A stretch of DNA of 64,000 bases from Candidatus Latescibacterota bacterium (GTDB lineage Bacteria > Latescibacterota > UBA2968 > UBA8231), in contig CBDCNM010000002.1 of assembly GCA_965219385.1 (NCBI GenBank), positions 3,296,305 through 3,360,304 on the forward strand, given 5' to 3'. This document shows, one piece after another, positions 10,895 through 41,858 of the stretch. Each line of letters opens with the position of its first letter. The stretch's first letter is position 1. Under the pieces are notes generated by a model. That model saw nothing but the letters and a program-made list of their open reading frames with translations, searched no databases and was not told the DNA's origin. A program made the translations under genes and the position numbers.

Positions 10895-10901
10895 TCCCGA
10901 C

Positions 10902-14246: not shown

Positions 14247-14314
14247 GGTTTTACTTCCTTATAGATAGCCTCACGGGCGAGCTTGGCCGCCGTGCGACTG
14301 GCTGCACAACAGGT

Positions 14315-14449
14315 GATGCTCTTCTCCAGGTCCTGCTTGCCCCCGTGGGGTACGCACTGGAAAGACAATCCAGGAAACAGCCGGGGCAGCAAGACTTCCA
14401 GCAGGCCACCCATCGAGGACTCTTCCAACAGAAAAACTATGCGCCTCAT
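14315..14449 (-). pseudogene. Truncated DUF4276-like (TOPRIM-like) partner of the upstream ATPase
   Basis: MRRIVFLLEESSM...VPHGGKQDLEKSI resembles the DUF4276 N-terminus; similarity stops after ~45 codons. Confidence 0.6.
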
Positions 14450-15627: not shown

Positions 15628-15653
15628 ATTCCTCTCTTCACCTTGCCCGGCGT

Positions 15654-16889: not shown

Positions 16890-16921
16890 CTGTTTTGTTC
16901 CCCTTTTTTAAGCCCTCACCA

Positions 16922-20793: not shown

Positions 20794-20836
20794 GTCAATA
20801 CATCATCCGCCTGCTCATCGAGCTTCGTCAACGAGT

Positions 20837-21163
20837 TCAGGGTCGTTCATAAATAACCTTCCCTTCGCGGAGTGCTGAACGCAACGCGGTTCCCACAAGG
20901 TGCCCGCGACGAGCGACTTCTTCGGGAGTCGCTACTACTATGTCTTTGCAGACCGGCAGATCGCCCAAGGCCCGGCGGATCTCGATAGCCGTGTCCCGCT
21001 TGTTGGACACATTGGGCAGAATCACGAGCAAATCCACGTCGCTCCATTCGGTTGCTGTGCCCCGTGCATGGGACCCGAAGAGGACGACCCGCGAAGGCTG
21101 GAAGCCTCTCACGATGCGGTCCACCATAGTTGATATGAACGTTTCCGAGGCGGCCACATTCAT
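20837..21163 (-). CDS. Minimal nucleotidyltransferase (MNT)
   Basis: LFGSHARG...SDVDLLV; ATG at 21163 overlaps the DUF1156 stop. Confidence 0.85.
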
Positions 21164-24060
21164 CTTGCACCTCCCGTAGCTGCATCGCCGAACAACCCGC
21201 CCTGCTCGGGCGGCACCTCCTTCCGTGCCAGATCGGAGATTTCGGGCCAGCTCTGTACTAGGCTGTTGTAGGAGAGGGCTTCGGCGGCGCGGTTTTTGCG
21301 CTCGCAGACGGTGTAGAGTCGGTAGGCCAGTTCGCGGGCGGTGTCGGCTGGTGCGCCGAGGCGGGCCACGACCCGCGCTGCGCCTTTTTCGCCGCCGGTT
21401 TCCAGAGCGCGGATGAGGTGGTGGACCGCTTCCCACACGGTGAGCCGGGCGTCGGTCGTCGGGTCCCAATCGTCGGCTAATTCATCCGGGCGCAGCAGGC
21501 GCACCTTGCCGGCGCTGGAGGCGAGGATGCCGCCCTCGACGATGCCGGCGATACTGGTATTTTTGGCTTTGGACAGGGTTTCGGCGACGCCGTATTCGCC
21601 TTCGTCGAAGCCTTGCTGCTCAAACCACGCCAAGGCCCAGCGGCTGTCGGCGTCGAAGTCGCCTTCCTGCTCGGCCAGCACTTCATCGAGCATCTGGTTG
21701 ATGAGCGCCAGGGCCTCGCGCACCGAGACGGGCTTGCCCTCGGCGTCGAGCACCTTGGCGTAATGGGTGAACACGGCCATGCCGGGGCCGATGGCGGCTT
21801 GGGCGAGATCGACGGGGGCGATGTTGCTGGATTGCAAGTGGGCGAGGGCCGTGGGGAGCTCGGCTCTCAATGCGGCGACGATTTCGCGGCGGGTGGCCAT
21901 TGGTGCGGCTGCAGGGCGCTGGCGGCAGACGAGGACGATGCTAGAGGCGAGGGCAGAGACGGACTTTTTCAATTTTTCGGTTGTCTCAGTGCGCATCGGC
22001 CAAGTGCCAGTGACCGCGAAGCCTGAGTCGATCACTGCTTCAAGGAAGGTTTCCCAACCAGTACTGGAAGTACCCGCGTCACCTTTAGTCTCGGACTGCT
22101 TGAAGGCATAGTATATGGTAACAGGAAAGCTGGGATGCACTTGCTCGGCAAAGCGGTGCACCGCCTGTCCCATGCCGTCGAGGAAGAAGGCTTCCGCTTC
22201 GTCCTTACTACCATGTCGGTAGGGCGTGGCCACTAATTCCTCAGCCTTCGGTACAGCTACCGTAGCAAATAGCTCAGGAAAGATTGGCTTCATTGATTGG
22301 CGTAGCCAAATGTAAAAGAAATCGGACAGATCCGCGTAGCCTATGTTGTCGTAGTAGGGGGGATCGGTGGAGATAACTCTGTCTATTGCAATAAGTTGCG
22401 ATTGGGCTTCCGCTTGGGTGCTGACGCCATAAGGATAAGCAGGTACCGATGCCAGCCCCGAGATAATCGACACGATCCCTCCCTCGAAGTTACCGCTGGA
22501 ATTTGAGAGCGGATTGCTTTCAGAGAAATCCCACACCATTGGTAGAGCTTGTCTCCCAAAGGTATTGCTGACGTGTTCGCGCAACCTTGCCCAAGCACAT
22601 ATAGTTGAGTTTCGATCCGCTACCTTATCGGTAGCCATCGCTAGATACACCCCCACCGCCTCCGCATACGCCGTCGCTCCCGCGCCTCCATCCCGTAGCG
22701 GTCGTCCGTCATCAGGCAAATCGGCGTTGGCTGCATCCTGCTCGACGCGCTCTATCGCTTCCGCCACCAAGTCGGAGAAGGTGCTCAAGGCGACAAGTTG
22801 ACGGGAAGTAAAGAGGTCACGCCACATAATCATGCCGTATTCCTGCACGCGGAAGCCGAGCGCCCGCTCCGGTAAGTTCGTGTCAGGTGTCCACTTCGGT
22901 TCTGCCTCTTCTGCGACGGCTTCATGCTCCGACGTTGGCGTCAGATACACTCGCCCCCGGTCTCCTTCGGCTACAATGGCCATCAAACGCGCACCCATCC
23001 GCCCGGATTTTGCCTCCGAGCGCAAGTAATCAAACGGCATGGGTGTACTCGACATGAGGCAGAGAAACGGTTTACCACTACCGCCAGCCTTCGTCCCCGC
23101 CTTCGCCGCCTCCGCATCCTCCGGCATTCCCACCTTCACCGCAAACCGATACCCACGCCCCTCAATCACCGGCTCGACATACGCCTCCTTTCCCTTCTTC
23201 GTCGAAAGCATAAAGGTCGAGGCCAGCGGCACCTCTACATCGGCAAACGCCGGATTCGGGCTTCTCACCGTCCGCGCCCACAGCCACGCAATCACCGTCA
23301 GCTTCCGGCCCTTGTAGCGTTCAAGATCGGGCCGCTCCCGCACCATCTCCTCGGTAATCTCAACCTGCGGATACAGATGCCCAATGCGCCGCTCGGCCTC
23401 GTCGCGCATCCACTGGCCATAGTAGCGCACATCCTCGGCTAAGCCCTTCGCCCCCTTCCATTCGTGCTCGATCAGGCTCCTTTCCTCACGGGACGCCGGA
23501 TTCACCGGCGACTGGCCGGCGAACTTCGGCGGTATCTCGATCATCGCCTTGTTGATGAGCACCGCCACCGGATTGAGGTCGCTGGCATGAGCTTCAAGCC
23601 CCAACCGCTGCGCTTCCAGCGGCAAGGCACCGCCGCCAGCAAACGGATCGTGAAAGGCCGGCAGCTTGTCCGGGTCGAACAATTCGGCGGCGCGCGGGTG
23701 ATCTGCATGGTCGGCGCAGGTCCGCCGCCAGCTCTTGCGAATCTCCGTACGCGCCCGCTCCAGCACCTTCTCGTTCGTGGTGTTCTCCCAGAGGACCAAA
23801 TCTTTCAAGATGGCGAACAGCCGCTCGCGCTCCTTTTCTTGGTCGGCCTCCGTGGGAAACAGATCGGGCCTGGCCGACGGATCGTCGACCAGCTGCGCAA
23901 AAATCACCGCCCGCGCCGCGGCCAACGGCCGCCGCGCCCACCACAGATGCAGGGTGCTCGGGTGTCCGTGCCGAATCGACTTCTCCCGCGCCGACGCGGC
24001 GTTGATCGCGTCGAGGGGCAGGGCGACTTCAATGAGCTTTTTGCGTTGCACCCCAACCAT
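21160..24060 (-). CDS. DUF1156 amino-(likely N6-adenine) DNA methyltransferase
   Basis: [31 protein letters not shown] motif I, TDPPYYDN motif IV. Confidence 0.9.
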
Positions 24061-24340
24061 TTTTTACGGCTCTCCTTTCACCCACAAACGCTCATCACTG
24101 CGGGGCGCGTCGACACCACAGCCCGGGCAGTGAACCATGTCCACCAATCATAACGAAACAAGATGCGCCGGCATCGGTAGCAGGACCCCAGACGGGTGGC
24201 CTGTCTGAAGGTGGCTCCGGCTGTACGAAGGGCACCCAAACAATCCACGACAACCGTTTGGCGTACCGCCGTGTGCAGTGACTCCTCACGCCCGTCTCAG
24301 TACTCTTAGGGGAGCCATTCCTCCCAGGACGAGCGTGGCT

Positions 24341-26438
24341 TCATTGCATCTGCTCCGACAAGTCGGCGTATGCGGTCTGAAGCATCTCCACAAAACGGTT
24401 CCTTTCTTTCTTATCCAGATGCCTAGACTGCTTCCCCGTTTTCTTTTCGTAAGGATGCGTCCCTGGCAGACGGTTACGCCGATCGTTCATCTCCCGGAAG
24501 CAATCTGCGATACGCGGGAATTGCTTGGAGAATTTGCGCGTCGCATCAAGTGTAACTCCGAAGTCTAGGAGTTGTCCGTTCTTGTCGGTTATACTGCCAG
24601 CAGCTACGTGACTCGTCGCAGCCAAATGACGCTGGAGCGCATGGAACAGTATCTGGTTGAACCCGTTCTGAGAGCTGAGCCAGTGTGACCTCCCAACATC
24701 GAACGTAGCTTCTGCCTCCTTGAGGAGGCCAAGTGCATGCCCGTATTCCGCGCCAAGCAACTCGTGCCATGACCTCGCCTTAGGTAGCTCGTATCGAGCT
24801 TGAAGAATCTCGGCGATTGGATCTACCGGTTTCGAGGGCGTGGGAACGACTCCGAGCTCATGTAGCGTATTGACCACTTGTTCCGCAAGATCGTCTATTC
24901 GCACCCCAAGACTCGCTGGCGTCAGGCCACGTTGGTGCATGGCGGGGCACACCGACAGTCCGGGCTCTGGCTTCTTCCTTCGCAGGTACTTCTCTACCAA
25001 TTGCCCATGTTCGAAAGCTCCATCGGGTAGTACGGGAGCCAAGAGAGATTGCAGCAGAGGCTTCTGATATGTTACGAACTTCGTGAATCTTCTTCCAATC
25101 ACGTCCTCCGATGCGCATAGAAAATGACACGCGCCCCACTGCTCCATGAAACCTTCCGTTACGTTGCGTTTGGCAATTTCAATCGCTTCATTCGTCAAGC
25201 CCTCATGGTTGTACACAGCGGAACGAACTTCCCTGCGATAGCGGGCAAGCACGTGCCAAGCTTCACCACGCACGTACGCGTACGGGTTCCGCTCAATGAT
25301 ATCAAGGCACAGATGCTCGATGGGCTTTCGGTAATCGAAACGATTGAGATATACAAAGAAGACGTCTGCATGTTCCGGGTGACGAGGGATGAGCCGCAAT
25401 ACTAACTTGAGGACACTGCTCTCCGGTTCTGCTCGGTACAGGACGTAGCGAAGCCTCGTCTTATCCAGAACCTTTTGCGGTTTGCCACCGATCGCTAAAG
25501 ATAGCAGTTCTTGAGCTCGCTCCTTGTCAAGCGTCTCGCTGCCTTCATGATGCTGAGGATCGGAAATACTGGGGAGCATTCCCAACGCTTCCTGTATATT
25601 TTGGGCTCTCTTAATCGCAAACTTACCCGTCTGCGGGATGAGGCCCCGTTCTCGACAGCGATGCTCAAGCTCGATTACGTTCTTACGTACGACACTCTCA
25701 GTGGTACCAAGAAAGCGTATGTCGTCAACGTACCTCACATATCCGGGGTCTGCCTGTAGTTCGAGGTCAATCGGGAGCAGAAAACACTCGGCCAGGAAAT
25801 CTGACGCAAGTGGTCCCTGGGCTAACCCGTGGCCGTGGCCAGACACAGGGCGATCAGAGCTCCACGTTTGTAAACAGTGAGCTATCCATTTCAGGTCATC
25901 CCCCTTCGTTCGTGGATACAATGTCTTAAGCAGAAGCTCGTGGGAAATCGTGTCATAGAATGCGTGCCAGGTCGAAGTCTGCGACCCAGCGCATCCCGTC
26001 TTGGTAGAAGAGCTTTTGGATTCGGCGCTGGAACGCGGCGTAGGTAGCCTGCCACTTGCGAAAGAAATAGATACTATCCGACTTCTGAAGAATATTGCTG
26101 AAGACAGTCTTGAACTGCATTGGTTCACGGCGTTTCTGCGTCTTCTTTGCTGCGAGATTTGCAAACGCCTGAAAGACGACCTGATCCTCAATGTGGAGTA
26201 ACGAAAGCGGACGATGAAGTCCCGAGACTTTTGGGATGTATATCCGTTCGGGAAGGCTCGGTTCAAATGTTCCTCCGAGGATCCTATCCCGAAGATTCCT
26301 CAGATTGGCATCAACCGCTACTTCATAGGCGTAGTAGAGATTCCGATACAGCGTCTTGTACTGATAATTGCTGCCGGTTGTGATTCTCCGCCAAGCCAAT
26401 GCAAGATTCGGATGGGTTGCAAGCTGATTCAGTTTCAT
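24341..26438 (-). pseudogene. Defence-type (Abi/UG-like) reverse transcriptase with helical region and putative C-terminal HEPN; single +1 frameshift near 25964
   Basis: PKVSGLHRPL, ADFDLA|AFYDTISH, GLAQGPLASDFLA, YVRYVDD, C-terminal RNRLPGTH. Removing one C in GCA-C-GCA-TTC restores a ~698 aa ORF. Confidence 0.8.
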
Positions 26439-26668
26439 AACTGCTTCACCCCTAACCAGAAAGTACGCGGGGTGCGGTAGACGGATCTGACACAGGAGTC
26501 ATCGACCATCTGCGCAAAAATCACCACCCGCGCCGCGGCCAACGGCCGCCGCGCCCACCACAAATGCAGCGTACTCGGATGCCCGTGCCGAATAGACTTC
26601 TCCCGCGCCGACGCGGCATTGATCGCGTCGAGCGGCAGGGCGACTTCAATGAGCTTTTTACGGGTCAT
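26435..26668 (-). repeat. Truncated 5' copy D of the DUF1156 gene (77 aa ORF)
   Basis: [13 protein letters not shown]...VIFAQMVDD; homology ~26498-26662; stop overlaps the RT ATG. Confidence 0.9.
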
Positions 26669-26688
26669 GTTTTTCCGTTAGCTCTATA

Positions 26689-27204
26689 TCAATTTGTTCC
26701 AGCGGCTGAATAGCGTGCGAGACACTTGCGGGTTTCCGGCTTGGGCAGCCTGCACCGTGGGTGAGCGCAGATCGCCTTCAGGCCCGCGCATAGCTTACTC
26801 GTGCTAGTAGCGGAAGTCTTGAACATCCAGTCGAGCAGCCACAGAACGCCGTGACAATCGACATGCGCGTCGTTGGCCAACCCACGCAGCACACGGTCGC
26901 CCGTCAGCAGGGTCCAGGTGTTCCTTGCCGCAAGGGCAAGAGCAAAGCTATCCGGTAGCGAAAGCGCCGGTTGCTTGCGCCGGTAGCGAAGGGCACAGGC
27001 GACCCCGGTGCCGTCCAGTTCCTCGATTCTTAGGCCGAGCTTGAGCAAATTATCGTCCCCGTGGTTTTTTAATTCGCGTTCGTACAAAAGGTCCGGGACG
27101 GCAAACTTGAACGGGAGGAGGAAGCCAGCCTCCAGCAACGCCCCGCGCTCAAGATCAATCAGGATGGACGTGTCGGAGACCAGCACCTTCATTGGCTTCA
27201 TCAT
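26689..27204 (-). CDS. PIN-domain protein
   Basis: VLVSDTSILIDL, LSLPDSFALALA, LLTGDR; the true start may be 27192. Confidence 0.75.
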   Translation of the reverse strand: MMKPMKVLVSDTSILIDLERGALLEAGFLLPFKFAVPDLLYERELKNHGDDNLLKLGLRIEELDGTGVACALRYRRKQPALSLPDSFALALAARNTWTLLTGDRVLRGLANDAHVDCHGVLWLLDWMFKTSATSTSKLCAGLKAICAHPRCRLPKPETRKCLARYSAAGTN

Positions 27205-28276
27205 ACCCCAGGCCTGGCGGCTCCTCCATGCGCTGGTTCAGCTCGTGGACCGAGGTTTCCAGTAGCTCGGCAGCCTTGGCCTCGGAGACCGCGCCCTCAG
27301 CCAAGGCGCGGAAGCACAGACGCTCGAAACGTCGGGGCACCTCGCCCGGCATGGCGTGGGGCTCCTGATAGGGCGGTCTGCGCCAGCCTAAACGGGAAAA
27401 TTCGTTAAATAGCCGCCGGAACAGGGTTGGGCTGAAGATACCGAGATCCTTGCACCGATAGGTCAGTGCCTGAACGCTCACGCCGAATAGCCGCTTGAGG
27501 AAGAAAAGTTCACCCCATCCGATGGATGTGCGGTGCTTGCCTATGGCGTCCCACAGCGCTTCGGCAGGCATCAGGAACGCTCCGGCGAAACGGTAGGCGG
27601 CCTTTTCGTCGTCTACGTTTGTGGCGTCCAGGACCAGATGTCCAAGCTCATGCGCCATCGTTAAACGCTGGCGCTCCCCCCAATCGTTGTCGTTCACAAC
27701 GAGGACGGGCACCGGGCTCTTGCCGGGGCGGCGCACCCGCGCCATAAGGCCGTCGATATTCCCCAGATTGATCGAGAGGACCTTAATGCCGCGTTCCTCC
27801 ACCAACTCCACTAGATCCTGGATCGGGTCGAGCCCCAGGCCCCAATATAAACGCAGGTTTTGAGCGGCACGGTCGGCTTCCCCAAGATCGCTGACGACGG
27901 GATAGGGTGCCTCCCGGGGCTTGTCCCAGTTGACGCTCGTCAGGCCGAGAAACTCCTCGACCATGAGGTAGCGTTCCAGCAAGTGCAGGACTTTGGCTTC
28001 GACCTGCGCCTCCTCGCGCTTCCTCGTGATCTTCTTTTTGCGGAACTCGACGGCCTCCAGCGCCATTTCCTGGTCTCCGACCAAGTAATCCACTGGAACT
28101 GAGAGGGCGTCGGCCAGCGCAATGAGGACGCCCGAGCTTGGCATGGATTCGTCGCGCTCGTACTTGCCGATTGCCTGCGCGGTTACGCGACTTCCAATGC
28201 GTTCCTCCAGGCCGCGAAGGGACAGGCCGGCTGCGGCGCGAGCGAGCTTGAGTCTTTGGCCTAGCATGGATGGCAT
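27155..28276 (-). CDS. XRE HTH + ImmA/IrrE (M78) metallopeptidase fusion
   Basis: N-terminal RLKLARAAAGLS...IGKYE HTH; RQRLTMAHELGH zinc motif; FAGAFLMP. Confidence 0.9.
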   Translation of the reverse strand: MPSMLGQRLKLARAAAGLSLRGLEERIGSRVTAQAIGKYERDESMPSSGVLIALADALSVPVDYLVGDQEMALEAVEFRKKKITRKREEAQVEAKVLHLLERYLMVEEFLGLTSVNWDKPREAPYPVVSDLGEADRAAQNLRLYWGLGLDPIQDLVELVEERGIKVLSINLGNIDGLMARVRRPGKSPVPVLVVNDNDWGERQRLTMAHELGHLVLDATNVDDEKAAYRFAGAFLMPAEALWDAIGKHRTSIGWGELFFLKRLFGVSVQALTYRCKDLGIFSPTLFRRLFNEFSRLGWRRPPYQEPHAMPGEVPRRFERLCFRALAEGAVSEAKAAELLETSVHELNQRMEEPPGLGYDEANEGAGLRHVHPD

Positions 28277-28283
28277 ACTCTTC

Positions 28284-28325
28284 TTGACAGTTTACAAAAC
28301 AGGTATATATTATTAATATTGTAAA
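28284..28325 (+). promoter_or_regulatory. Putative sigma70 promoter and inverted-repeat operator between XRE-ImmA and CBASS
   Basis: TTGACA 28284-28289, 18 bp spacer, TATTAT 28308-28313; TTTACAA (28291-28297) and TTGTAAA (28319-28325) form an inverted repeat. Confidence 0.5.
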
Positions 28326-28512
28326 TGGACGGAATTGGGTTTTGTCATGCGACTCCAGTTCACGACCGGCTACAGAAGCCGACGATGAAGATCGCAGCGA
28401 CATTATCCTAAACACAGAGAAAATCATGGAACGAAATTTCTACGTTCGCTCTGGCGGCTCCCAGTGGCTGCCTTTATTTCAATTTACAAATATATTTATT
28501 ATTCCACAATAT

Positions 28513-28572
28513 ATAAATCACGACCGCCGGAGATAAATCACGACCGCCGGAGATAAATCACGACCGCCGGAG
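28513..28572 (+). repeat. Perfect tandem repeat, 3 x 20 bp (ATAAATCACGACCGCCGGAG)
   Basis: Three identical adjacent units ~50 bp upstream of the likely CD-NTase start. Confidence 0.95.
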
Positions 28573-28623
28573 ATGGACGATGCTTCCTGCACCAGCGGTA
28601 CAATCATAAGGAGTACTATTACA

Positions 28624-29889
28624 ATGAACTCTAGGACGATTCCACCGCAACTGACCGAACCGACGGATATCCTCTTGGCCGATGTGGCGATCCGCGTCCA
28701 ACTCAGCCGGACGGACTACAACAAGGCCGTTAATAAGTATCAGACGATCAACGATTGGATTGAGCGCGACGGTAGCCCGCTCAAGGATCGTGTTTATCTA
28801 TTATACCCGCAAGGGTCTATGGCGATCGGCGCAACCATCGCGTCGAGGCTCAAGACGGACGAGTTCGACATCGACGTGGTAGCGCAGCTCAATCTGCCGA
28901 AGTACGTATCACCCCACGAGCCTTTGGACCTGCTTTTCGAGGCGATCAGGGGAGAGCCGGGTTCCCGGTACTATCGGATGACAAAGCGGAGAACTCGTTG
29001 TGTCACAGTCGATTACAGCGACGCCATGCACATCGACGTTACGCCGGTTCTTCGCCGATGGGGCACTCCAGAGCGCGAGAGCTGGCTCTTCCATGACCGG
29101 CCAGAAGCACCCCACGAGCCGGGTAAGAAGCTTATAGCCAATCCCTACGGCTTCGCCGAGTGGTTCAAGGCTAACACGCCGTCCGATCAGGACTTTGCAA
29201 ATATCTTTGAAAAACGTGCAGCCGAATACGAGCAACTGATGTTTAAGGAGGCGGCGGACAGCGACCCCGTCCCTCCGCAGGAACCGCCATTCCAAAAATC
29301 GAAGGCAGTAATCGTGCTCCAGCTCCTGAAGCGTTGGCGCAATGTGCAATACGATGCGCGGTCTGGGCGACGGCCCCCGTCGATCCTGATTGCGAAGCTG
29401 GTGGCCGATGCCGCTAATCATACGGACCGACTTTCGGAGGAATTGCTGCTTCAGGCACGGCATATGCTGTCCGAGTTCCGGCGTTGGCACGGCGCGGGGT
29501 GCCGCATTCACGTCGCTAACCCCGTTTGTGAACAGGATGTTCTGACCGATCGCTGGCCGGGGTCGCTGCAAGACCAAGCGATCTTTATCCGCGACCTTGA
29601 AAATCTCGTTGTGCAGGTCGAGAGGCTGGTCTCTGGATGTGATCTTGAGGCGATGAAGGCAATTATGGTTGATCTGTTCGGCGAAGTGCCGACAACGGAC
29701 GCCTTCCAGGCATTTAATGAGCGTCTGGGCAATCAAGTTCAACTAGGGCAAAGCCAGCACTGTCCAGATACTGGCAGTCTCGTCCTTCCGACAACAGTGG
29801 CGATAGGCACGACCACCCCGCCGGGTGCGCTAAAAACGTCCAAGCACACCTTTTTCGGCGGCGAACTACCAGATAATTCCAGACAATGA
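28624..29889 (+). CDS. CBASS cGAS/DncV-like nucleotidyltransferase (CD-NTase)
   Basis: YPQGSMAIG...EFDIDVV, HIDVTP, ANPYGFAEWF, QLLKRWRN, C-terminal HTFFGG; AGGAG precedes the ATG at 28624. Confidence 0.85.
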   Translation: MNSRTIPPQLTEPTDILLADVAIRVQLSRTDYNKAVNKYQTINDWIERDGSPLKDRVYLLYPQGSMAIGATIASRLKTDEFDIDVVAQLNLPKYVSPHEPLDLLFEAIRGEPGSRYYRMTKRRTRCVTVDYSDAMHIDVTPVLRRWGTPERESWLFHDRPEAPHEPGKKLIANPYGFAEWFKANTPSDQDFANIFEKRAAEYEQLMFKEAADSDPVPPQEPPFQKSKAVIVLQLLKRWRNVQYDARSGRRPPSILIAKLVADAANHTDRLSEELLLQARHMLSEFRRWHGAGCRIHVANPVCEQDVLTDRWPGSLQDQAIFIRDLENLVVQVERLVSGCDLEAMKAIMVDLFGEVPTTDAFQAFNERLGNQVQLGQSQHCPDTGSLVLPTTVAIGTTTPPGALKTSKHTFFGGELPDNSRQ

Positions 29890-30332
29890 GTTTGAAGATT
29901 AATAAGCAGATCGAACTCATGCGGCAAAGGTGGCCAGATTTCCGTGTGACCAACCGGACGGGTCGCTTGGTACGATGGGAGGGACAGCTTCGACCCCTGA
30001 GCCAAATGTATACGGTTCAGATCGCTTTCTGCCGAGAACGCAAACAAGGTAGTGCCAAATGTCCACTGTTTCCGCAAGTGATAGTGATTAACCCGCCTTT
30101 GCGCCGACGAGATGAACAGCCAGAAGAGCCAATCCCACACCACTACCCCAACCAAGACTGCCCTGAACAGCCCATTCTCTGTCTCTATGACCCAGCCACT
30201 GATGAATGGCATCCTCGCCAATCAATCGCCCATACCATCGTCCCCTGGACGATTGATTGGCTGGCTTGCTATGAGGGCTGGCTTGCAACAGGTAAATGGA
30301 TGGGTGGCGGGCGTCATCCAACAAGTGAGTAG
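29886..30332 (+). CDS. CBASS stand-alone ubiquitin E2-like protein
   Basis: IPHHY...LCLYDP..EW...IVPW..DWL..YEGWLATGKW.GGG; ATGA-coupled to the cyclase. Confidence 0.75.
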   Translation: MSLKINKQIELMRQRWPDFRVTNRTGRLVRWEGQLRPLSQMYTVQIAFCRERKQGSAKCPLFPQVIVINPPLRRRDEQPEEPIPHHYPNQDCPEQPILCLYDPATDEWHPRQSIAHTIVPWTIDWLACYEGWLATGKWMGGGRHPTSE

Positions 30333-30340
30333 ATCCCACA

Positions 30341-31405
30341 ATGTTCGATAGCAGTGGGGAAGGGGGAGCACCCCCGAAACGATCATCCGGCGCGCTCAAG
30401 CACCGCCGCGTCCCACTTCCTTGGCCAGAAGATCGGGAATTTCGCATTCTTGCGATTGATGGGGGTGGCATTCGCGGTATTTTCCCGGCCACTTTCTTGG
30501 CGGGATTAGAGGAACGCTATCTCGGCGGAGTCTCTGTGGCCCAATACTTTGACCTCATCGCCGGGACCTCAACCGGGGGTATCATTGCCCTTGGGCTCGC
30601 TGCTGGGCTTACAGCCGCCCAACTGCGCGACCTCTACATTGAGCGCGGATGCGAAATCTTCCCACCTATTCGTAGCGATGTTATTGGGTCGGCAAAACGC
30701 TGCTTTTGGGGCCTCTACCAGTATTTCAAGTTTCGCTACGATCATAGGGCACTCATGTGCATTCTGCGCGAGACCTTCGGCAACCGAAAATTTGGTGAGG
30801 CGCAGACGCGGCTGTGCATACCCTCCTTTGATGGCCGGCACGGAGAGGTGTACATCTTCAAGACCCCACATCACCCAGACTTTAGCAATGACGCCAAGGA
30901 GCAAATGACAAAGGTAGCGGCGGCAACATCAGCCGCGCCGACGTTTTTTCGTCCACTTGAGGATAGCGGCTACACCTTCATTGATGGCGGAGTCTGGGCA
31001 AACAATCCAATCATGGTCGCTTTAGTCGATGCCTTGTCCTGCTTCTCCGTCCCACGTGAGCGCATCCGCATCCTGAGCCTAGGCTGTGGGGATGACCAGT
31101 ATGCCGTTGGTAAAACGAAGACGCTGCTAGGCGGCATATTGGCATGGAGGGACATCATATATGGTGCGATGCGGCTTCAATCGCTCAACGCTCTTGGTCA
31201 GGCCGGACTGCTGATTGGCGCGGACAGGATTATCAGGGTCAACGCGCCTACGTGTGAAAAGAAAATCCGACTGGACGACTGGAGCCGTGCTGTGGCGGAG
31301 CTGCCCGGTGCGGCAGAAGTGGTCCTCGACGAACTCGGCGAAACCGCGGCGTCCGTATTTCTAATGGAACCCACTGCCTCTTACCAGCCAATTATCACCG
31401 GGTAG
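30341..31405 (+). CDS. capV: Patatin-like phospholipase CBASS effector (CapV-like)
   Basis: DGGGIRG, GTSTG, SAAPTFF, DGGVWANNP; directly follows the cyclase and E2. Confidence 0.85.
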   Translation: MFDSSGEGGAPPKRSSGALKHRRVPLPWPEDREFRILAIDGGGIRGIFPATFLAGLEERYLGGVSVAQYFDLIAGTSTGGIIALGLAAGLTAAQLRDLYIERGCEIFPPIRSDVIGSAKRCFWGLYQYFKFRYDHRALMCILRETFGNRKFGEAQTRLCIPSFDGRHGEVYIFKTPHHPDFSNDAKEQMTKVAAATSAAPTFFRPLEDSGYTFIDGGVWANNPIMVALVDALSCFSVPRERIRILSLGCGDDQYAVGKTKTLLGGILAWRDIIYGAMRLQSLNALGQAGLLIGADRIIRVNAPTCEKKIRLDDWSRAVAELPGAAEVVLDELGETAASVFLMEPTASYQPIITG

Positions 31406-31407
31406 TC

Positions 31408-31566
31408 TTAAAGCGCCCGCTTGGTATGCAGATGCCTCGCGTTGATCATTTCTAAGGAGGGCCTAACTGTGCGGGGCGAGCTTTTCTTGGACTTCCAGGA
31501 GTTGGCATCGAGTAGGAAAGTTTCTTCGATGAGCTTTTTGCGGGATCTAGCTGGCGGCGTAATCAT
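31408..31566 (-). repeat. Short degenerate 5' copy C of the DUF1156 gene
   Basis: MITPPARSRKKLIEE..LLDA; ttcgatgagctttttgcggg is shared with copy A; ATG overlaps the upstream stop. Confidence 0.65.
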
Positions 31567-32030
31567 AGCTTGAGTCCCTTCGTCAATTGCTCGCCGCACT
31601 TGATCAGCATAGTTCCTTTTTTTTGTCCACGTAGTTGTATTTTCCTAGAGCGAAGCACTTTGAGATCGTTCCGATGGATCTTTTTCCCATGCGCAAGGGC
31701 TGGAACCAATTGGAACGAAACTCCTTTTGGGAGCCAGATGTCAGCCATTCGGACACCTCCCTCAAGTTGCTCCAATACCGCGTTGCCGCTCAATCTGCCG
31801 CTCTTTAGTTCAATCGGTGCTACCCAAGTCTCATTGCTTTCTTCGCCGACGAATAGATAGTCGCACCGTTTCCAATTATTCGGAATTGACAGTGCGTCGC
31901 AGTCCATATCGACGAGAATGCGCATCGGTGGTGCTCCTGCCAAATCAATTCGGCATCCGTTTTTATCGCAGTGAGTCTCATGGCAGTCATTGGGTACTTT
32001 GTTGGCAACTACTGCAACTATTCCGTTCAT
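31563..32030 (-). CDS. Small protein, possible PD-(D/E)xK nuclease, partner of the ATPase
   Basis: RCDYL...PIELKSG; ATGA-coupled to the ATPase. Confidence 0.5.
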   Translation of the reverse strand: MNGIVAVVANKVPNDCHETHCDKNGCRIDLAGAPPMRILVDMDCDALSIPNNWKRCDYLFVGEESNETWVAPIELKSGRLSGNAVLEQLEGGVRMADIWLPKGVSFQLVPALAHGKKIHRNDLKVLRSRKIQLRGQKKGTMLIKCGEQLTKGLKL

Positions 32031-33538
32031 TCGGCTCTACTGTCCTCGATGCGATTAAAAATACTCACGCTTTCGTTGTACAGCGCCGCACTGACTGCAT
32101 CGTAATCGGTCGGATAGAGGCCGGTTTCCGAATCCAGCTTCACTTCCTCCACTACCGAGCCCTTCGGGCGGGACTTTGGCTTGAACAACCATGCCCCCAC
32201 TTGGTCGGAATGCAGCGCGAAATCGCCTCGGGGGATATCCTTACGGCGAGCCTTGGGAAGTTTGGAGCGCTGCACGATGTTGGCGAGTTCCTCTAGCACC
32301 CATTCGCTGTGCGTCGTGATTATCACTCTGACGCCCGCATGAATGAGTGCCGCGATTTGGCGGGTGAATTCGACCTGCATGGCTGGATGCAGATGCGATT
32401 CCGGCTCTTCGATGATCAAGGTTTCGCCGGGTTGGACGACATGGCGCAGATACAGCACCACCGGTGCGAGCTCCGACACCATGGACGAGGCATTCATCAG
32501 GGGCAGGGAATCTTTCCATCCCTTTGGCAGGTAGGTGAAGTGCGGGTAGCCGATCGTCTCCGATCTGTCGACGCGCACCGACCCGTCGAGAATGGCTTCT
32601 TCGATCTGCGCGCCGAGATCGCGTCGAGATCTGCGTCGCCGATACGGCGGACGGTCGAGTTCAATCAACTGTTGGAGGAAATCCGCCAGAACACCCGAAA
32701 GCATAGGCGTACCGGCAGCCGGACGGAGCCCTGTCATCGGCGCGCTTCCGATCATGGCGCTGACGACCACGCTGTGCGCGTGCATCACGCCCGTGCGGGC
32801 GGCGGGAAGGTAGAACGCGGGAACATGCAAAGGACCGGCGAATAGAGGCAGGATGGGATCGATCAGGTGTTCCATCAGTTCCCCAGTAAAAAAAATCCAA
32901 TCTTCGTCTCTTTGGCCAGCCCTTGAGATCATATCCGCCGCCATGCGGTGCAAAAAATGGTTGATTCTCTTATTAGTCCCCCCAGTATCGATCCGAATCG
33001 GAGTCTCTTCGGGAATTGTTGTCTTGAATTTGGACCCCTGTGTCCCGACCATCAACTCGTGCTCGAAGGGTGCCAAATTGTTCGAGACATGCCTTCGGAA
33101 AACAACGCGAGCGCCATTCCTGTTTCCCTTACGGATCAGCGCGCTAGTTTTGCCAATGCCGAAACACCGGCCGATTTCATTGCCGAGTTGGTCGCCCTGC
33201 GCATCGAATACGGAACGAATCTCATCCACGATCAAATCGGGCAGAACAATGCGCCTTTCGCCCCTCTTGTTCATAAACGTCTGCTCCGCCCATTCGGCAA
33301 GAACATCAATGGTTTTCCGGTGCAGTTTACGAGGCGCGTAGTCCCGGAACATCCGGTAATCCCGAAAGCCACTGAAAAACCGATGCAGCGCATAAATCAG
33401 CATCGCCAGATAGGATTTCCCCGTGTTGCTCGGACCGACGAATACCGTCAGCGGACGCAGATCAATCTTGGCTTCGACGATCGGCCCGAAATTGGCTACT
33501 TCGAGTTCAAGTGAGTCTTGCTTGGTTAGATCGTCCAT
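32027..33538 (-). CDS. ABC-type ATPase (AAA_15/AAA_21)
   Basis: NFGPI, GPSNTGKS, ASSMVSELAP, IIEEPESHLHP, TTHS. Confidence 0.85.
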   Translation of the reverse strand: MDDLTKQDSLELEVANFGPIVEAKIDLRPLTVFVGPSNTGKSYLAMLIYALHRFFSGFRDYRMFRDYAPRKLHRKTIDVLAEWAEQTFMNKRGERRIVLPDLIVDEIRSVFDAQGDQLGNEIGRCFGIGKTSALIRKGNRNGARVVFRRHVSNNLAPFEHELMVGTQGSKFKTTIPEETPIRIDTGGTNKRINHFLHRMAADMISRAGQRDEDWIFFTGELMEHLIDPILPLFAGPLHVPAFYLPAARTGVMHAHSVVVSAMIGSAPMTGLRPAAGTPMLSGVLADFLQQLIELDRPPYRRRRSRRDLGAQIEEAILDGSVRVDRSETIGYPHFTYLPKGWKDSLPLMNASSMVSELAPVVLYLRHVVQPGETLIIEEPESHLHPAMQVEFTRQIAALIHAGVRVIITTHSEWVLEELANIVQRSKLPKARRKDIPRGDFALHSDQVGAWLFKPKSRPKGSVVEEVKLDSETGLYPTDYDAVSAALYNESVSIFNRIEDSRAE

Positions 33539-33669
33539 ATCTTCATTCTCCGTTTCGGCAATAGTCCGGCTCGCCTTTCCTTATTCCGGCATCTCTCCCG
33601 CACCGACGCGGCGTTGATGGCGTCGAGGGGCAGGGCGACTTCGATGAGTTTTTTGGGGTGGATATTCAA
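33526..33669 (-). repeat. Truncated 5' copy B of the DUF1156 gene (47 aa ORF, not in the ORF track)
   Basis: [27 protein letters not shown]...; homology ~33594-33655; the ORF ends overlapping the ATPase start. Confidence 0.85.
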
Positions 33670-33678
33670 AAGATTGCC

Positions 33679-34344
33679 TCACACAGGAATGGCCACGTGA
33701 ACAATAGCTTGTTCTTCCGGGAGTATCGATTGATCAAAATTGTTGCTAGGACGAGGAAGTCGCTCAGCGTATTTCTCGAACGCCGTGTGATAAAAATTGC
33801 GGAGGATAAAATCGATAAACCAAAACGGTGTCATAGGGGCAGTCACCGGAATCCTGCAATTTTCGTATTGGCCGAGTGTGAGGTGCGATTGGGGATGCAC
33901 CAACTCTCGGTCATCATCTAGAGCACCGTAGTCGAAACGCAGTGGGAACGGAACGATGTTCCTGGCGACCACGTCAGCATAAAGTTCGTCTTCCAAGTAG
34001 ATTGCTGGGTCGTTCTGGAAATTTTCGAGGTGGGGCGCAGAAAAAAACGCAAGTCGGTGGCGTTGGAGCGTTCCGTCAGCAAATATATACATCATCTGAA
34101 TCAAGGCTCCGTCGAGCATTTTCACATTGTACGCACGCTCTTCCACGAGATGCTGGTATATCTCATCATAGCTGCGATTTCTCAATGCGAACTGCACATG
34201 CTCAGATCCTTCAAAAGTGACCTGACGCAGATTGCCATCCACGGTCTTTTGGAACGCGAAGCGTTGATTATCCGCGAGACCAATCTCTACCAAGTGTCCG
34301 ATGAGTTCGTTGATTTGCCTTTCAGTCTGGCTAGGGCTTGGCAT
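33679..34344 (-). CDS. DUF2290 family protein
   Basis: LDGALIQMMY, HRLAF, PLRFDY, HPQSHLTLGQYENCRIPV..P..P..FIDFILRNFY. Confidence 0.75.
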   Translation of the reverse strand: MPSPSQTERQINELIGHLVEIGLADNQRFAFQKTVDGNLRQVTFEGSEHVQFALRNRSYDEIYQHLVEERAYNVKMLDGALIQMMYIFADGTLQRHRLAFFSAPHLENFQNDPAIYLEDELYADVVARNIVPFPLRFDYGALDDDRELVHPQSHLTLGQYENCRIPVTAPMTPFWFIDFILRNFYHTAFEKYAERLPRPSNNFDQSILPEEQAIVHVAIPV

Positions 34345-34350
34345 GAATCG

Positions 34351-36516
34351 TCACGCGTCTTCCGACAACAGCTCTCGAAGTTTGATTCTCGCCTGTTTAT
34401 TCAGGTCTTCCTTGTGAATCCTGCCAGACGCGAGATCATTGACCAGATCAATCAAGGCCCGATCTTTGCTCTTTAGCTTTTTGCGCTCTTTCTCGGTCAT
34501 ATCGCGATGGATGACTCGCAGATTCTGACGCTCCTCATCGGTTGGATATCTGAATTGTAACTCAAAATTTTGAGAACGCAGTCTTTCATACTCTTCTTTC
34601 AGCTTTACCATCTTATCGCCGACACCAAGAACGCGAACCCATGCCTTGCTTCTCGTGATCGCCGTGAAGAGACGATTGCGAATACTGGCCAAATTCCAGC
34701 CGGCCGATTGGCAGTCTTGAGCGTTGATAATGTAAACCATTCCGGCCTCATTACCCTTGGCGCGAAAAATTCCAGTAAAAGTCACAGAATGCAAAATCGG
34801 TTGAAAAAAAGTGTCTGGATCGGTATCCACCCCGGCAAGGTGGCAATCGATGCCCATCTCCAGCAGTTGACTCCGTATGGGGCCGACTTTTTCGCGAGTC
34901 GTAAGGGGATCCGGATTAATTACGATAATATCATCATGTCGGAGTTGGTCTTTCTCCAAATTCTCTTTGATCTCATGCACAAGCCAATTACTTTGAGCCT
35001 GTTCGTCTTTGAACGGAATGAACCGGATTAGATCGTCGATTTGCGAGTGATCTTCGAGAAACTTGGGACTGGTCTCATCTGTTCTTTGCAGTGTCACAGG
35101 CGAACCGCTATTAAGCTCACCATCTTTTATTCGGTAGCCGATGTCCTCCCACAACTGCGGGGAATCGAACATCTGCACAAGACCCTTCGCCTCTTTTTTC
35201 TCCCCATATCGGTAGATCCCGAACCCAAGCGCATGAGCTGCCACCAGTAACGGGCGCGAGTTGCGATAGCAGACATTGAGAATGACGTCGCGCCGCCGGT
35301 CGTCATCCGTTTCATTGTCTAACCTTACTTTGGGGAAACCATCAGTACCACTCCCAAATATGTCCTCTGGCGACGGAAGAGATTCTCCAGCCAAGTTCTG
35401 TAGCTCATCGTATGCGTAAACCAGCCGCTTGGGGTTATCCAGCAATTGATAGCAAAGCCGTAAGAACTCGGGTGGAAAATCCTGAGCCTCATCTACTAAG
35501 ATCGCATTGTAAATGGCCTCGGTTTTTCTCGCTTGTGTGAGTGCGTGGTTACATGCTCCATAGAACTCTCTTCCGCGATCAAAGACTTTTCTCGCTGCCC
35601 CAAAATCGAAGTACTCGACGTCGTGGGTGCGACAAAATTCGTAATAGATTCCATCGCGGTCATCACGACCAGAAGCACCCCACGCATTGAGGATTCGCAG
35701 GTTGTTCCAGTCGGGCTCTTCGCCTGTCTGTTGGAGAAAGAAATTGTTTATGAGATAGCGAAACTGTCCTTTGAGCGAACGGGTGTTGAATGTTACCGCA
35801 ATGCGCCAGTCGGGATGTTGGGTGTGTAAATAGGCGGCCTTCAACGCGAGTATTATCGTCTTGCCCGACCCTGCAAGCCCTCGAATACGCTGTACACCAT
35901 CTACGGTCTCGATGACCGCTCTGCTTTGTTGACGGTCAAGCGTAGCAATTGAATCCTCCAGACGTTTTAGCTTTGCTCCCCGAGAGTCGTCTCGGGTTCC
36001 TGGCCGCATCGTCCTGCTTTTGCGAATCGTGGAAATGCTCTGTATCGCTGACAGAGCGGTTCTGTACATGTCTTTCTCATTATCCTCCCACTCTTCAATC
36101 TGGGCGATCTTCTCCTCCAGCGAGTCGGAATTTGCAAGCAGGTACTCATCGTCGCTATAAGGGACTGGTTGGTACACTCCCGGTGCAAAAGAAATCATCT
36201 GAATGGGTACGATGAGTCTTCTGCGCCGCGTCAATTCGCGATATGTTCTAAGCCGAGCGTCGAGCTTATTGAACAAATCGTCCTGTCGCTCTTGGTAATT
36301 GCCCGGATCGGAGCCTTCGATCAGGTCGAAGATGACAAGCCCCTTGTCGGGAGATACCCAGAGCGCATCAATCGGATGCCTTCCTTCAGGCGTGCTGATG
36401 ATTGGATAGCCGATGAGCAGTTCTCCAGACAGATCGGCACATCCCGAAAAGGATTCAACCAACTTTTGGCTCGACACGGGTTTGTCGTTGGTACCTCGAA
36501 CGATAGAAACGCTCAT
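34351..36516 (-). CDS. SF1 (UvrD-like) helicase of a helicase+DUF2290 defence system
   Basis: RGLAGSGKT, LVDEAQD, YRN, RAKGNE, LFTAITRSK; adjacent to DUF2290. Confidence 0.8.
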   Translation of the reverse strand: MSVSIVRGTNDKPVSSQKLVESFSGCADLSGELLIGYPIISTPEGRHPIDALWVSPDKGLVIFDLIEGSDPGNYQERQDDLFNKLDARLRTYRELTRRRRLIVPIQMISFAPGVYQPVPYSDDEYLLANSDSLEEKIAQIEEWEDNEKDMYRTALSAIQSISTIRKSRTMRPGTRDDSRGAKLKRLEDSIATLDRQQSRAVIETVDGVQRIRGLAGSGKTIILALKAAYLHTQHPDWRIAVTFNTRSLKGQFRYLINNFFLQQTGEEPDWNNLRILNAWGASGRDDRDGIYYEFCRTHDVEYFDFGAARKVFDRGREFYGACNHALTQARKTEAIYNAILVDEAQDFPPEFLRLCYQLLDNPKRLVYAYDELQNLAGESLPSPEDIFGSGTDGFPKVRLDNETDDDRRRDVILNVCYRNSRPLLVAAHALGFGIYRYGEKKEAKGLVQMFDSPQLWEDIGYRIKDGELNSGSPVTLQRTDETSPKFLEDHSQIDDLIRFIPFKDEQAQSNWLVHEIKENLEKDQLRHDDIIVINPDPLTTREKVGPIRSQLLEMGIDCHLAGVDTDPDTFFQPILHSVTFTGIFRAKGNEAGMVYIINAQDCQSAGWNLASIRNRLFTAITRSKAWVRVLGVGDKMVKLKEEYERLRSQNFELQFRYPTDEERQNLRVIHRDMTEKERKKLKSKDRALIDLVNDLASGRIHKEDLNKQARIKLRELLSEDA

Positions 36517-36615
36517 ATACGATCCTCCGTGTGCTGCAAATATGAAGGTTCAAATGCTTCGGAGACTTGGGAAATCTGCGGAAAGCGGTATCGAAAAATG
36601 CGCTAGCACTGTCGG

Positions 36616-36921
36616 TCACTCGTTCCCGTCACGCCTAATATTGAAGGTACGGGATTTAAGGATTCGTGCAAGGCACCCGAACAGCCGCTCGCGCTCCTTT
36701 TCCTGGTCGGCCTCCGTAGGAAACAGATCGGGACTGGCCGACGGATCGTCGACCATCTGCGCAAAAATCACTGCCCGTGCCGCGGCCAACGGCCGCCGCG
36801 CCCACCACAAATGCAGCGTACTCGGATGCCCGTGCCGGATTGACTTCTCCCGCGCCGAGGCGGCGTTGATGGCGTCGAGCGGCAGGGCGACTTCGATGAG
36901 CTTTTTGCGGGGAGGCGTCAT
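36616..36921 (-). repeat. Truncated 5' copy A of the DUF1156 gene
   Basis: [15 protein letters not shown]...[10 protein letters not shown], then unrelated; homology ~36679-36909. Confidence 0.9.
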
Positions 36922-37002
36922 GTGCCGAGCGCCTTGGTCAATTGCTCGCCGCATTTGCTCAGCTCAGTTCCTTTCCTTTGTCCGCGCAGTTGTATTAGTT
37001 TC
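36918..37002 (-). pseudogene. 3' remnant of a homologue of the 31563-32030 gene
   Basis: [23 protein letters not shown] vs [23 protein letters not shown]. Confidence 0.8.
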
Positions 37003-38130: not shown

Positions 38131-38167
38131 GCTACGGAACAAGCCGCTCCGATTCATGCACCAAATA

Positions 38168-41830: not shown

Positions 41831-41858
41831 GTTTGAATGGATGGGCAAAATATTATTA

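Follow-up and report, generated by a model that had tools for sequence, protein, structure and literature searches.

The question raised by the locus described here is how defence genes enter an operon without the help of mobility genes. The locus lies in a stretch of 64,000 nucleotides (nt) from a Candidatus Latescibacterota bacterium (assembly GCA_965219385.1, contig CBDCNM010000002.1, positions 3,296,305 to 3,360,304 of the forward strand), which we call the window. In the window, an intact methylase gene of the DUF1156 family is preceded by four truncated copies of its own 5' end, here called stubs, and different defence genes are present between one copy and the next. The searches with PADLOC and Pfam identified the intact gene as hmaB and placed it in a complete Hma (helicase-methylase-ATPase; HmaA/B/C) operon. 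It occupies 21160..24060 on the minus strand and encodes an N6-adenine methylase of 966 amino acids (aa) (PADLOC HmaB PDLC00660, 1552.6 bits; Pfam DUF1156, 3.9e-33). Judged from its sequence, the operon is of the Hma type and is predicted to act against phages.

Our results led us to think it fairly probable that the slot upstream of hmaB was stacked with cassettes by a homologous crossover combined with an illegitimate joint. We describe the stubs and their cassettes, and then examine this explanation.

Stubs of the hmaB start and the cassettes between them

Five copies of the hmaB start, all in direct orientation on the minus strand, were found by repeat finding, motif search, and in-register ungapped alignment. 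That is, the four truncated copies that the original prediction for this DNA had placed upstream of the intact gene were all recovered, together with the start of the gene itself. The repeats formed families of 232 nt (three copies), 67 nt (four copies, 91% each), and 42 nt (five copies, family D3), and a 16-nt motif occurred at exactly five sites of the window (24042, 26659, 31539, 33654, and 36906). The Pfam DUF1156 profile was matched by the intact gene and by the open reading frames (ORFs) 26435-26668 and 36616-36954.

The stubs, designated c36, c33, c31, and c26, retain different lengths of hmaB. Stub c36 (36678..36921) holds nt 1-244 of the gene (aa 1-84). It matched the DUF1156 profile at 4.2e-34, and when the intact protein was compared with the window by tblastn, aa 6-85 were found at 36909-36670 with 95% identity (E 1.5e-34). 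Stub c33 (33594..33669), which lies 10 nt past the stop of a DUF2290 gene, holds about nt 1-76 and was matched by aa 1-28 at 33672-33589 (E 3.9e-6). Stub c26 (26494..26668) has its own ATG and holds nt 1 to about 175 (aa 1-60); positions 1-52 of the DUF1156 profile were matched at 2.8e-26, aa 3-64 were found by tblastn at 26671-26486 (87%, E 9.5e-28), and the nt identity with intact hmaB was 93%. Stub c31 (31503..31566) consists of the first 15-20 codons (about 64 nt) of a more divergent allele. It was recognized by repeat family D3 and by alignment. Alone it was not significant by tblastn (E 4.4), and its support comes from a 118-nt match of 31524-31641 to 36891-36996 (76%, E 1.8e-16), which spans the end of a gene designated ORF155 and the hmaB start.

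The start of c31 overlaps the stop of ORF155 as ATGA. The same overlap is seen at c36, where the 3' end of an ORF155-like gene remains as a relic of 75 nt (36922..36996, minus strand; 84% identical to 31572-31641, family D4), and to judge from the sequence the junction of this relic with c36 looks native. The original prediction had correctly taken the copy at 36921 as an element of the array and had missed the relic that precedes it.

The stubs break off at 36678, 33594, about 31503, and about 26494, that is, at hmaB nt 244, 76, about 64, and about 175, and the break points thus differ from copy to copy as had been predicted. The 3' breaks lie 52-160 nt short of the first gene of the next cassette. 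In the case of c31, the break is about 100 nt past the stop of a patatin gene, the operon of the cyclic-oligonucleotide-based anti-phage signalling system (CBASS) found there being on the other strand.

The ratio of nonsynonymous to synonymous divergence (dN/dS) was then calculated, a check that had been proposed with the prediction. Between the intact gene, c26, c33, and c36, taken in pairs, it was 0.04-0.15 with dS mostly of about 0.3, the 39 nt of c31 being left out; against the intact gene it was 0.04 for c36 and 0.14 for c26. Because the differences are mostly synonymous, the copies diverged as parts of working genes. This supports the view, already put forward in the prediction, that the stubs are relics of distinct alleles that once functioned and are not the result of a recent duplication. 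The stubs, the intact gene, a paralogue of the same genome, and the allele of a same-family relative group together at 90-94% nt identity, and the alleles of other phyla reach at most 89.7%.

Read from 5' to 3' on the minus strand, the order of the array is the PhyH gene, the ORF155-like relic, c36, helicase and DUF2290, c33, ATPase and ORF155, c31, CBASS and RmrA/PIN, c26, the UG19 reverse transcriptase (RT), and hmaB. All array genes of interest except the CBASS operon are on the minus strand. Cassette 1 (33679..36516) consists of a UvrD-like helicase (34351-36516; PADLOC Helicase, 1042.6 bits) and the DUF2290 protein (33679-34344; PADLOC DUF2290, 2.5e-93). Cassette 2 (31563..33538) consists of an ABC-type ATPase resembling PD-T4-4_A (32027-33538; Pfam AAA_15/AAA_21; PADLOC PD-T4-4_A, 1.6e-37) and ORF155 (31563-32030), which matched no family. 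Cassette 3 is composite. It holds the CBASS operon (28573..31405, plus strand) with cyclase, E2-like protein, and patatin phospholipase effector (PADLOC Cyclase 7e-151, E2 7.5e-50, and Effector 2.5e-112), and a RosmerTA-like pair (26689..28276) made up of RmrA, with an XRE helix-turn-helix (HTH) and an M78 peptidase domain (27155-28276; PADLOC RmrA, 6e-51; Pfam HTH_3 and Peptidase_M78), and a PIN-like partner (26689-27204; weak Pfam PIN match). Cassette 4 (24341..26438), which adjoins intact hmaB, is the RT of group UG19, belonging to the class of defence-associated reverse transcriptases (DRT).

The modules of helicase with DUF2290 and of CBASS with XRE-ImmA/PIN had been predicted, and both are borne out by these matches. 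Two further modules had been read as "ATPase + putative nuclease" and "RT-HEPN". The ATPase and the RT were confirmed, and the second halves were not: the domain scans with Pfam and PADLOC detected no nuclease domain in ORF155 and no HEPN domain in the RT. As the prediction had stated, no integrase was recognized; neither an integrase nor a transposase domain was present among the window ORFs scanned. The window also contained no tRNA genes that might serve as attachment (att) sites.

The RT gene is split by a frameshift. Positions 2-155 of the RT_UG19 profile are matched by ORF 25953-26438 and positions 156-559 by ORF 24341-26266, and the one-base frameshift lies near 25960 (25940-25990, minus strand) within a conserved RT motif. 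Since a contig from a public sequencing run reproduces the frameshifted sequence exactly, the RT cassette beside the intact hmaB may be a pseudogene.

Each stub directly follows a defence cassette, of which only the ORF155-like relic remains in the case of c36. The native link between cassette and stub was shown directly for c31 and c36, and via relatives for two cassettes. That is, the pair of ATPase and ORF155 stands directly upstream of intact hmaB in three other loci (L019, L052, and L101), and the composite of CBASS, RmrA, and RmrT stands directly upstream of hmaB in L021, a locus of another phylum in which an hmaB fragment follows the composite as well.

At its distal end the array adjoins a gene for a PhyH-family dioxygenase (37006..37800, minus strand; Pfam PhyH, 2.7e-38). 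The homology of the PhyH flank between the window and the same-family relative L058 ends at 37002, the joint of a variant haplotype described below is at 37000, and the cargo beyond is different in each. Because the homology stops there and the cargo beyond differs, we regard PhyH as the left border of the slot in this lineage, a role that hmaA has in canonical operons.

Sequencing runs and recurrence in other loci

The genome assembly comprises 5.81 Mb in two contigs. The stretch was present wholly or partly in seven public runs of three studies, and we compared the contigs of four of these runs with the window. In run X2, single contigs covering 24016-26556, 31273-31896, and 33626-36706 showed 0 differences and crossed the breakpoints of c26, c31, and c36, respectively. 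Thus, three of the four stub-to-cassette junctions are supported by contigs of public runs. The depth along the array was 7.9-10.5 among the X2 records listed. Run X6, which belongs to a different study, contained 33626-36706 with 12 differences, including helicase and DUF2290 and the c36 breakpoint.

The prediction had anticipated alternative arrays, and one was found in the population. In metagenome contigs from three runs of two studies, with a depth of 18-51, position 33578 was joined to 37000 with 9 other letters between them. In this variant haplotype, PhyH stands beside the ATPase cassette, and the distal block of ORF155 relic, c36, helicase, DUF2290, and c33 is absent. The missing block extends from the left border of the slot to a point at most 16 nt from the end of c33, at the left border of the ATPase cassette; the alignment beyond 33578 has too few bases for this position to be exact.

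Joints at 23798/36738, 23952/36824, and 23952/26577 between hmaB copies were considered as products of loop-out and rejected, their sides being of about 22 nt or of unknown filler, perhaps from third alleles. Runs X6 and X1 had zero depth at the RT cassette, which was not accepted as evidence of its absence. Two other joints, 21360/37008 in X1 and 36910/27155 in X6, hint at further arrangements.

A survey of related loci, also proposed with the prediction, found upstream 5' stubs with variable cassette number in other Hma loci, partly in single-contig chromosomes. By Pfam scan, DUF1156 was present in 68 of 153 genomes of the phylum. The subtype of the window comprised 79 loci from many phyla, with 72-86% identity over the first 130 aa of HmaB. 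For the 51 loci that had an intact gene and at least 1.5 kb of upstream DNA, 300-nt pieces of each locus's own hmaB were compared with its own upstream DNA. The 5' piece gave matches in 8 of the 51 loci: four contained true stubs (L021, L039, L061, and the window, of which three stubs were matched), two were doubtful, and two were tandem full copies. The middle piece gave matches in 3 of 51 loci (the tandem copies L057 and L073 and one other), and the 3' piece in 2 of 51, which were the tandem copies only. At the protein level, none of 56 loci of this subtype had a partial hmaA beside a full copy, and none of 48 had a partial hmaC beside one. Because true stubs were present in only 4 of the 51 loci, it seems that most cargo exchange leaves no scar.

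Some candidates were discarded. L073 had been taken as a stub with an unknown cassette of 858 aa; the 858-aa ORF proved to be HmaB residues 148-958 by PADLOC, and the locus is a tandem pair of full-length hmaB of which the first is frameshifted. Neither L073 nor L057 was therefore counted among the loci with stubs. Matches of 15-16 nt in L036 and L059, and a match at 8958-8973 inside hmaA of genome G145, were treated as chance.

From a second subtype, 18 loci, including the second Hma locus of the present genome, were probed with 5', middle, and 3' pieces of each locus's own hmaB against the upstream DNA of the same strand. Here the 300-nt 5' probe found stubs in 10 of 18 loci, with up to three real stubs per locus, and the middle and 3' probes found none (0/18 each). 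The cargo between stub and gene included OLD-family, HerA, Ppl-like, PDC-S02, and HEC-05 proteins. Within the first 120 nt, the stubs differed from the neighbouring intact gene at 7-18% of the nt, two very short or rearranged stubs being left out. The stub of genome G130 was 96% identical to the gene of genome G146, compared with 92% to its own gene.

The genome of the window itself has four full-length DUF1156 genes. In its second Hma locus, the HmaB of which is 30% identical to that of the window, the order is canonical, with hmaA, about 11 kb of cargo, and hmaB. Two 5' stubs of hmaB (39 and 172 nt) lie within this cargo, which also includes a Schlafen-type fragment, FitA/PIN, a DUF1016 gene, an ABC ATPase, an MNT gene, and a trio of methylase, kinase/ORC-like, and CARF-like genes. 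A third Hma-type locus (G000:C2:1494467-1498061) has an hmaB paralogue with 78% aa identity, and 93% nt identity over the first 228 nt. Of hmaC only two fragments remain in this locus (aa 320-351 and 1029-1114), hmaA was not found nearby, and the operon is decayed.

In two loci the scar also contained a piece of the other flanking gene. In genome G109, hmaB aa 1-98 are followed at once by hmaA aa 1099-1132, and stubs of the hmaA end were found in G109 and in G142. In L058, a 30-nt hmaB piece together with the last 100 nt of PhyH is followed by a different cassette and then hmaB.

Stubs of the hmaB 3' end were observed about 0.7 kb downstream of the intact gene in L118 (genome G109; 19663-19779) and L109 (genome G145; 19575-19709; reverse-complemented coordinates in both cases). 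They correspond to aa 950/956-994 and are 92-98% identical to the second HmaB of the window genome. Because of these 3'-end stubs, we consider that the slot between hmaB and hmaC can be scarred too. In L019, from a same-class relative, an hmaB frame of 1235 aa (9950-13657) has an IS200-like Y1 transposase domain inside it (Y1_Tnp, residues 332-408), and an IS1595 transposase is present in the cargo slot.

Possible origin of the array

We propose the following route. Each unit of a cassette and an hmaB start would once have stood in a related genome, where it formed the region upstream of a functional hmaB allele. When two versions of the slot that carry different loads recombine, a homologous crossover would take place in a conserved border gene, namely in the first 1 kb or so of hmaB, or in PhyH here and hmaA in canonical operons. 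The second joint would be illegitimate and would fall inside the 5' part of the hmaB of one partner, giving the product X-hmaB'-Y-hmaB, in which X and Y are cassettes and hmaB' is a stub. Such a process would be homology-facilitated illegitimate recombination or an equivalent unequal exchange, and would need no integrase. The stubs would then be scars and not genes; later deletions would shorten them, and they may also serve as internal homology for the gain or loss of cassettes. As an overall explanation we think this fairly probable, and the recombination mechanism itself we infer as the simplest route to the structure. The original prediction had already combined a homologous and an illegitimate joint, and this part is retained; which partner was incoming and which was resident, as it had specified, is not settled by the structure.

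The proposed crossover needs a conserved stretch. In the first 330 codons or so of hmaB, the proportion of synonymous differences (pS) between paralogues was 0.16-0.41, compared with 0.5-0.8 in the central target-recognition part. Since the first part of the gene, with the N-terminal conservation across phyla given above, is much better conserved than the centre, a suitable homology anchor exists.

The lengths of the stubs can be considered as follows. Genomes G146 and G130 have the same stub-to-cassette joint with 95%-identical DNA beyond it, and the remaining stub consists of nt 1-123 in one and of nt 1-250 and 697-741 in the other. Because the joint is common and the remaining pieces differ, the ancestral stub was at least 741 nt long and was cut down twice. 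The sequences thus indicate that stub lengths and break points, which are nt 244, 76, about 64, and about 175 in the window and 39 and 172 in the second locus, are partly secondary through erosion. Long stubs may invite loop-out by homologous recombination, which would account for the survival of short, diverged ones.

The prediction had also read the array as chronological, with the newest cassette beside the intact gene. The structure does not show this. The product is the same whichever partner was resident, and the order of acquisition therefore cannot be dated from the structure. The variant haplotype fits gain or loss at the distal end beside PhyH at least as well.

Several observations weigh against the proposed route. 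Stubs are uncommon in the window subtype, as described above. In L101, these two cassettes are stacked in the order seen here and no hmaB scar was found; a DUF4325 gene and an HTH remnant occupy the place between DUF2290 and the ATPase instead. The cargo between hmaB and hmaC of the window contains no hmaB or hmaC fragments by tblastn and self-blastn, and this slot is thus free of scars. Among the compared loci there was no pair of donor and recipient with a fresh joint, that is, no event was caught in the act. The stubs of this genome resemble one another more than they resemble any outside allele, which gene conversion or sparse sampling could also explain. The hints as to the direction of growth conflict: in G146, G130, and G000, the unit beside hmaA is common across genera at 93%, and the cassette beside hmaB is common to two genomes at 95%. 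The contigs of the public runs break in the conserved stub core, so that the four cassettes are not phased on one molecule, and run X2 may be the assembly's own source.

Other origins of the array were weighed against these data. Whole Hma operons or hmaB genes might first have stood in tandem (X-B-C-A-Y-B and so on), and deletions might then have left the cassettes with short pieces of hmaB. Full-length tandem hmaB genes do exist, since L057 has the order A-Schlafen-B-C-B2, L073 has a frameshifted and an intact hmaB, and G052 has two full-length DUF1156 frames 5.7 kb apart; stubs do undergo internal deletion, and this genome has an Hma locus with decayed hmaC. We nevertheless consider such decay unlikely. 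The surviving pieces are almost always 5' ends, middle and 3' probes having found 0 of 18 loci in the second subtype and, when the tandem full copies are subtracted, 1 and 0 of 51 in the window subtype. No hmaC or hmaA fragment lies between the cassettes of the window, and the survey of the window subtype found no partial hmaA or hmaC beside a full copy. Decay would further require four independent deletions running from the first 250 nt of hmaB to 52-160 nt before the next cassette gene, and the tandem state would itself require the same kind of recombination. It is also conceivable that a recombinase whose gene lies elsewhere recognizes a site in the hmaB start, comparable to attI/attC of integrons or to the rlmH end used by the staphylococcal cassette chromosome (SCC), and that cassettes were added there one by one. 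The repeated core is highly conserved, and repeated gene ends between cassettes resemble the tandem islands at tRNA genes or at rlmH. This seems very improbable to us, however, because the stubs end differently every time (from nt 39 to about 300 across loci), pieces internal to the gene occur alone in L061, L021, and G056, composite scars contain ends of the other flanking gene, the window ORFs scanned lack an integrase or transposase, and the stubs are alleles diverged by 7-30% and not copies of one att core.

The stubs might, on the other hand, be small working genes that encode free DUF1156 N-terminal peptides, e.g., regulators or decoys of the methylase. In favour of this, two of them have a start codon and an open frame (77 and 112 aa), and most substitutions are synonymous. 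The synonymous bias is, however, explained by divergence that preceded truncation, the lengths range from about 13 to about 100 codons, the start is absent in L061 (aa 13-43), L021 (aa 54-72), and G056 (aa 30-50), the frames run on into unrelated sequence, and one stub is internally deleted; we regard such a function as highly improbable. The array might finally be an assembly artefact, in which haplotypes of several strains were fused into a chimera at the conserved start of hmaB. Several haplotypes of the locus coexist in metagenome-type runs, and no contig spans two stubs. Against this, the 3' joint of each stub to the next cassette is unique, and joining at a common core would not make such joints. 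Three of the joints are crossed by the contigs without differences, one of them also in another study, and the depth in X2 is even; the genome is in only two contigs, and the same architecture recurs in other genomes, including single-contig chromosomes. An artefact is hardly credible in our opinion. We keep to recombination between differently loaded slots as the explanation of the array.

More tentatively, and with some doubt, we may ask whether restriction-like multi-gene operons of the Hma kind are in general platforms that capture cassettes without an integrase. The conserved ends of the core genes would then be portable homology arms, by means of which modules of cargo with a gene start move from genome to genome, even across phyla, through general recombination. 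The stubs would be active internal recombination sites at which cassettes are subsequently gained, lost, or rearranged. If this were true, such operons would stand beside the integron as a counterpart driven by RecA, and the embedding of defence genes would have an explanation.

Other genes of the window and comparison with known systems

The core genes of the window form one cluster on one strand in the order B-C-A, with about six cargo genes separating B from C. In the 79 related loci, the usual order was A-B-C (39/79), and A-B was found in 19 more. The hmaA gene (7361..10984, minus strand) encodes an SNF2 helicase with NOV_C (PADLOC HmaA PDLC00659, 1648.5 bits, residues 32-1206/1207; Pfam SNF2, Helicase_C, and NOV_C), and hmaC (10902..14246, minus strand) encodes a protein with HEPN_Swt1 and a DUF499 ATPase (PADLOC HmaC PDLC00662, 1138.8 bits; Pfam HEPN_Swt1 and DUF499). 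No stubs of hmaA or hmaC were found anywhere in the window by tblastn and self-blastn.

The cargo between hmaC and hmaB (14078..21170, minus strand) was identified with PADLOC and Pfam. It consists of a HEC-01-like ATPase (14446-15669) with a small partner at 14078-14449, a Schlafen/AlbA_2 protein (15654-16889), a split Dsr1-like SIR2 protein (19612-20793 and 16922-19669), and an MNT nucleotidyltransferase (20837 to about 21170), all on the minus strand. The Dsr1-like protein is divided into a SIR2 part of 393 aa and a C-terminal part of 915 aa in overlapping ORFs, which may reflect a two-gene form or a frameshift.

Just past hmaA on the opposite strand (5315-6902, plus strand), a GmrSD_N-domain protein and a RiboL-PSP HEPN protein are encoded; they are likely a further defence pair, located at the margin of the operon. 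Beyond the array, an MmeI-like type IIG restriction-methylase occupies three consecutive ORFs (38747-41587, plus strand) containing MmeI_N, the helicase spacer with the methyltransferase, and the target recognition domain with the C-terminal domain; the gene has apparently been interrupted by frameshifts. A local repeat (about 180-250 nt), present at 38167-38417 and 46080-46149 in direct orientation (96%) and at 41856-42034 in inverted orientation (86%), brackets this broken gene and a low-GC island (36-41% GC, 42-46 kb) with genes for a C5 cytosine methylase, a HATPase_c_3 protein, and a Methyltransf_35 protein. Elsewhere in the genome, the repeat has only two copies, both weaker. At the other end of the window (1-4606, plus strand), a very large protein of the surface type is encoded, which has LDL-receptor class B repeats as well as Ig-like domains, and the DNA contains long internal repeats of 72-86% identity.

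Embedding of genes in operons of Hma, bacteriophage exclusion (BREX), defence island system associated with restriction-modification (DISARM), and type I restriction-modification is used to discover new defence genes. In the accessible text of Payne et al. (bioRxiv 10.1101/2024.01.29.577857), embedded genes are reported for 931 of 1,485 Hma systems, and HEC-01 is among the Hma-embedded candidates. The origin of embedding is left open there, with the idea of a "genomic sink" and the remark that it "remains to be explored". The words beginning with truncat- or recombin- and the word remnant are absent from the main text of Payne et al., and neither stubs, arrays, nor a recombination model are described there. 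Hma has been renamed a type-1 DUF499-centred BREX-related system (PMC12839542), and in the accessible text of that paper the words truncated, remnant, and recombination do not occur. A literature search, which left most subscription journals and the supplements of Payne et al. outside, found no published description of core-gene stubs in defence operons. The window resembles the published embedding in its host system, in the position of defence cassettes between or beside core genes, and in the presence of HEC-01, and differs from it in the hmaB stubs and the cassette array. According to its accessible text, the curation by Payne et al. kept only loci having each hma gene once and no pseudogenes. 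Pipelines that drop loci with duplicated or broken core genes drop exactly the most heavily loaded operons. The stubs would be a physical trace of how cargo enters operons without mobility genes, the question left open in the embedding paper. They suggest that cargo moves jointly with the beginning of the core gene next to it and that splicing unites the loads of different lineages, and they supply break points and alleles for reconstructing such histories.

Integron arrays and tandem islands at SCC sites or tRNA genes are also ordered cassettes with repeated sequence beside a fixed gene, and they require a site-specific recombinase and a fixed crossover site. In the window, no IntI or other recombinase domain was present in the ORFs scanned, and the separators are unequal 5' fragments of hmaB (about 64 to 244 nt). 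Likewise, unlike in SCC and tRNA-gene islands, the boundaries differ, and the ORFs scanned include no integrase. The word "integron-like" in the original prediction is therefore acceptable as an analogy only, as there is neither an integrase nor a fixed crossover point in the stubs.

Closer analogues are found in toxin loci. The displacement of Rhs C-terminal parts was reportedly described by Jackson et al. in 2009. For the Vibrio cholerae type VI secretion system (T6SS), the accessible text of Kirchberger et al. 2017 (PMC5361080) describes effector-immunity arrays built by sequential displacement. [quoted passage not shown] As described there, the T6SS arrays lie downstream of the conserved part and consist of orphan immunity genes of one toxin system, whereas the Hma array lies upstream of a conserved gene start and consists of self-contained defence systems that are unrelated to one another, with 5' stubs of the anchor gene between them. 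Orphan modules of Rhs loci and of contact-dependent growth inhibition (CDI) loci, in the latter case cdiA-CT/cdiI, are described in the accessible text of Poole et al. 2011 (PMC3150448). They are like the Hma array in being strings of modules that each retain a piece of a conserved gene, usable as homology for module swaps. According to the same text, what these orphans retain of the conserved core is its 3' part, and they code for alternative ends of one protein; in the Hma array the stubs retain the 5' start, and the cargo does not belong to the methylase.

The claim of the prediction that this architecture had no known description thus has to be given up in part: Hma embedding and toxin-locus displacement arrays have already been published, and the hmaB stubs themselves apparently have not. 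With the displacement arrays the window shares repeated pieces of one conserved gene, which are different alleles and lie between variable modules, as well as variable non-homologous joints and the lack of a dedicated recombinase in the ORFs scanned. It departs from them in that its modules are independent defence systems and not alternative toxin ends with immunity genes downstream. By analogy, we think that the array may be regarded as a mirror image of the displacement arrays of the Rhs/T6SS type, transferred to the embedding of defence genes.

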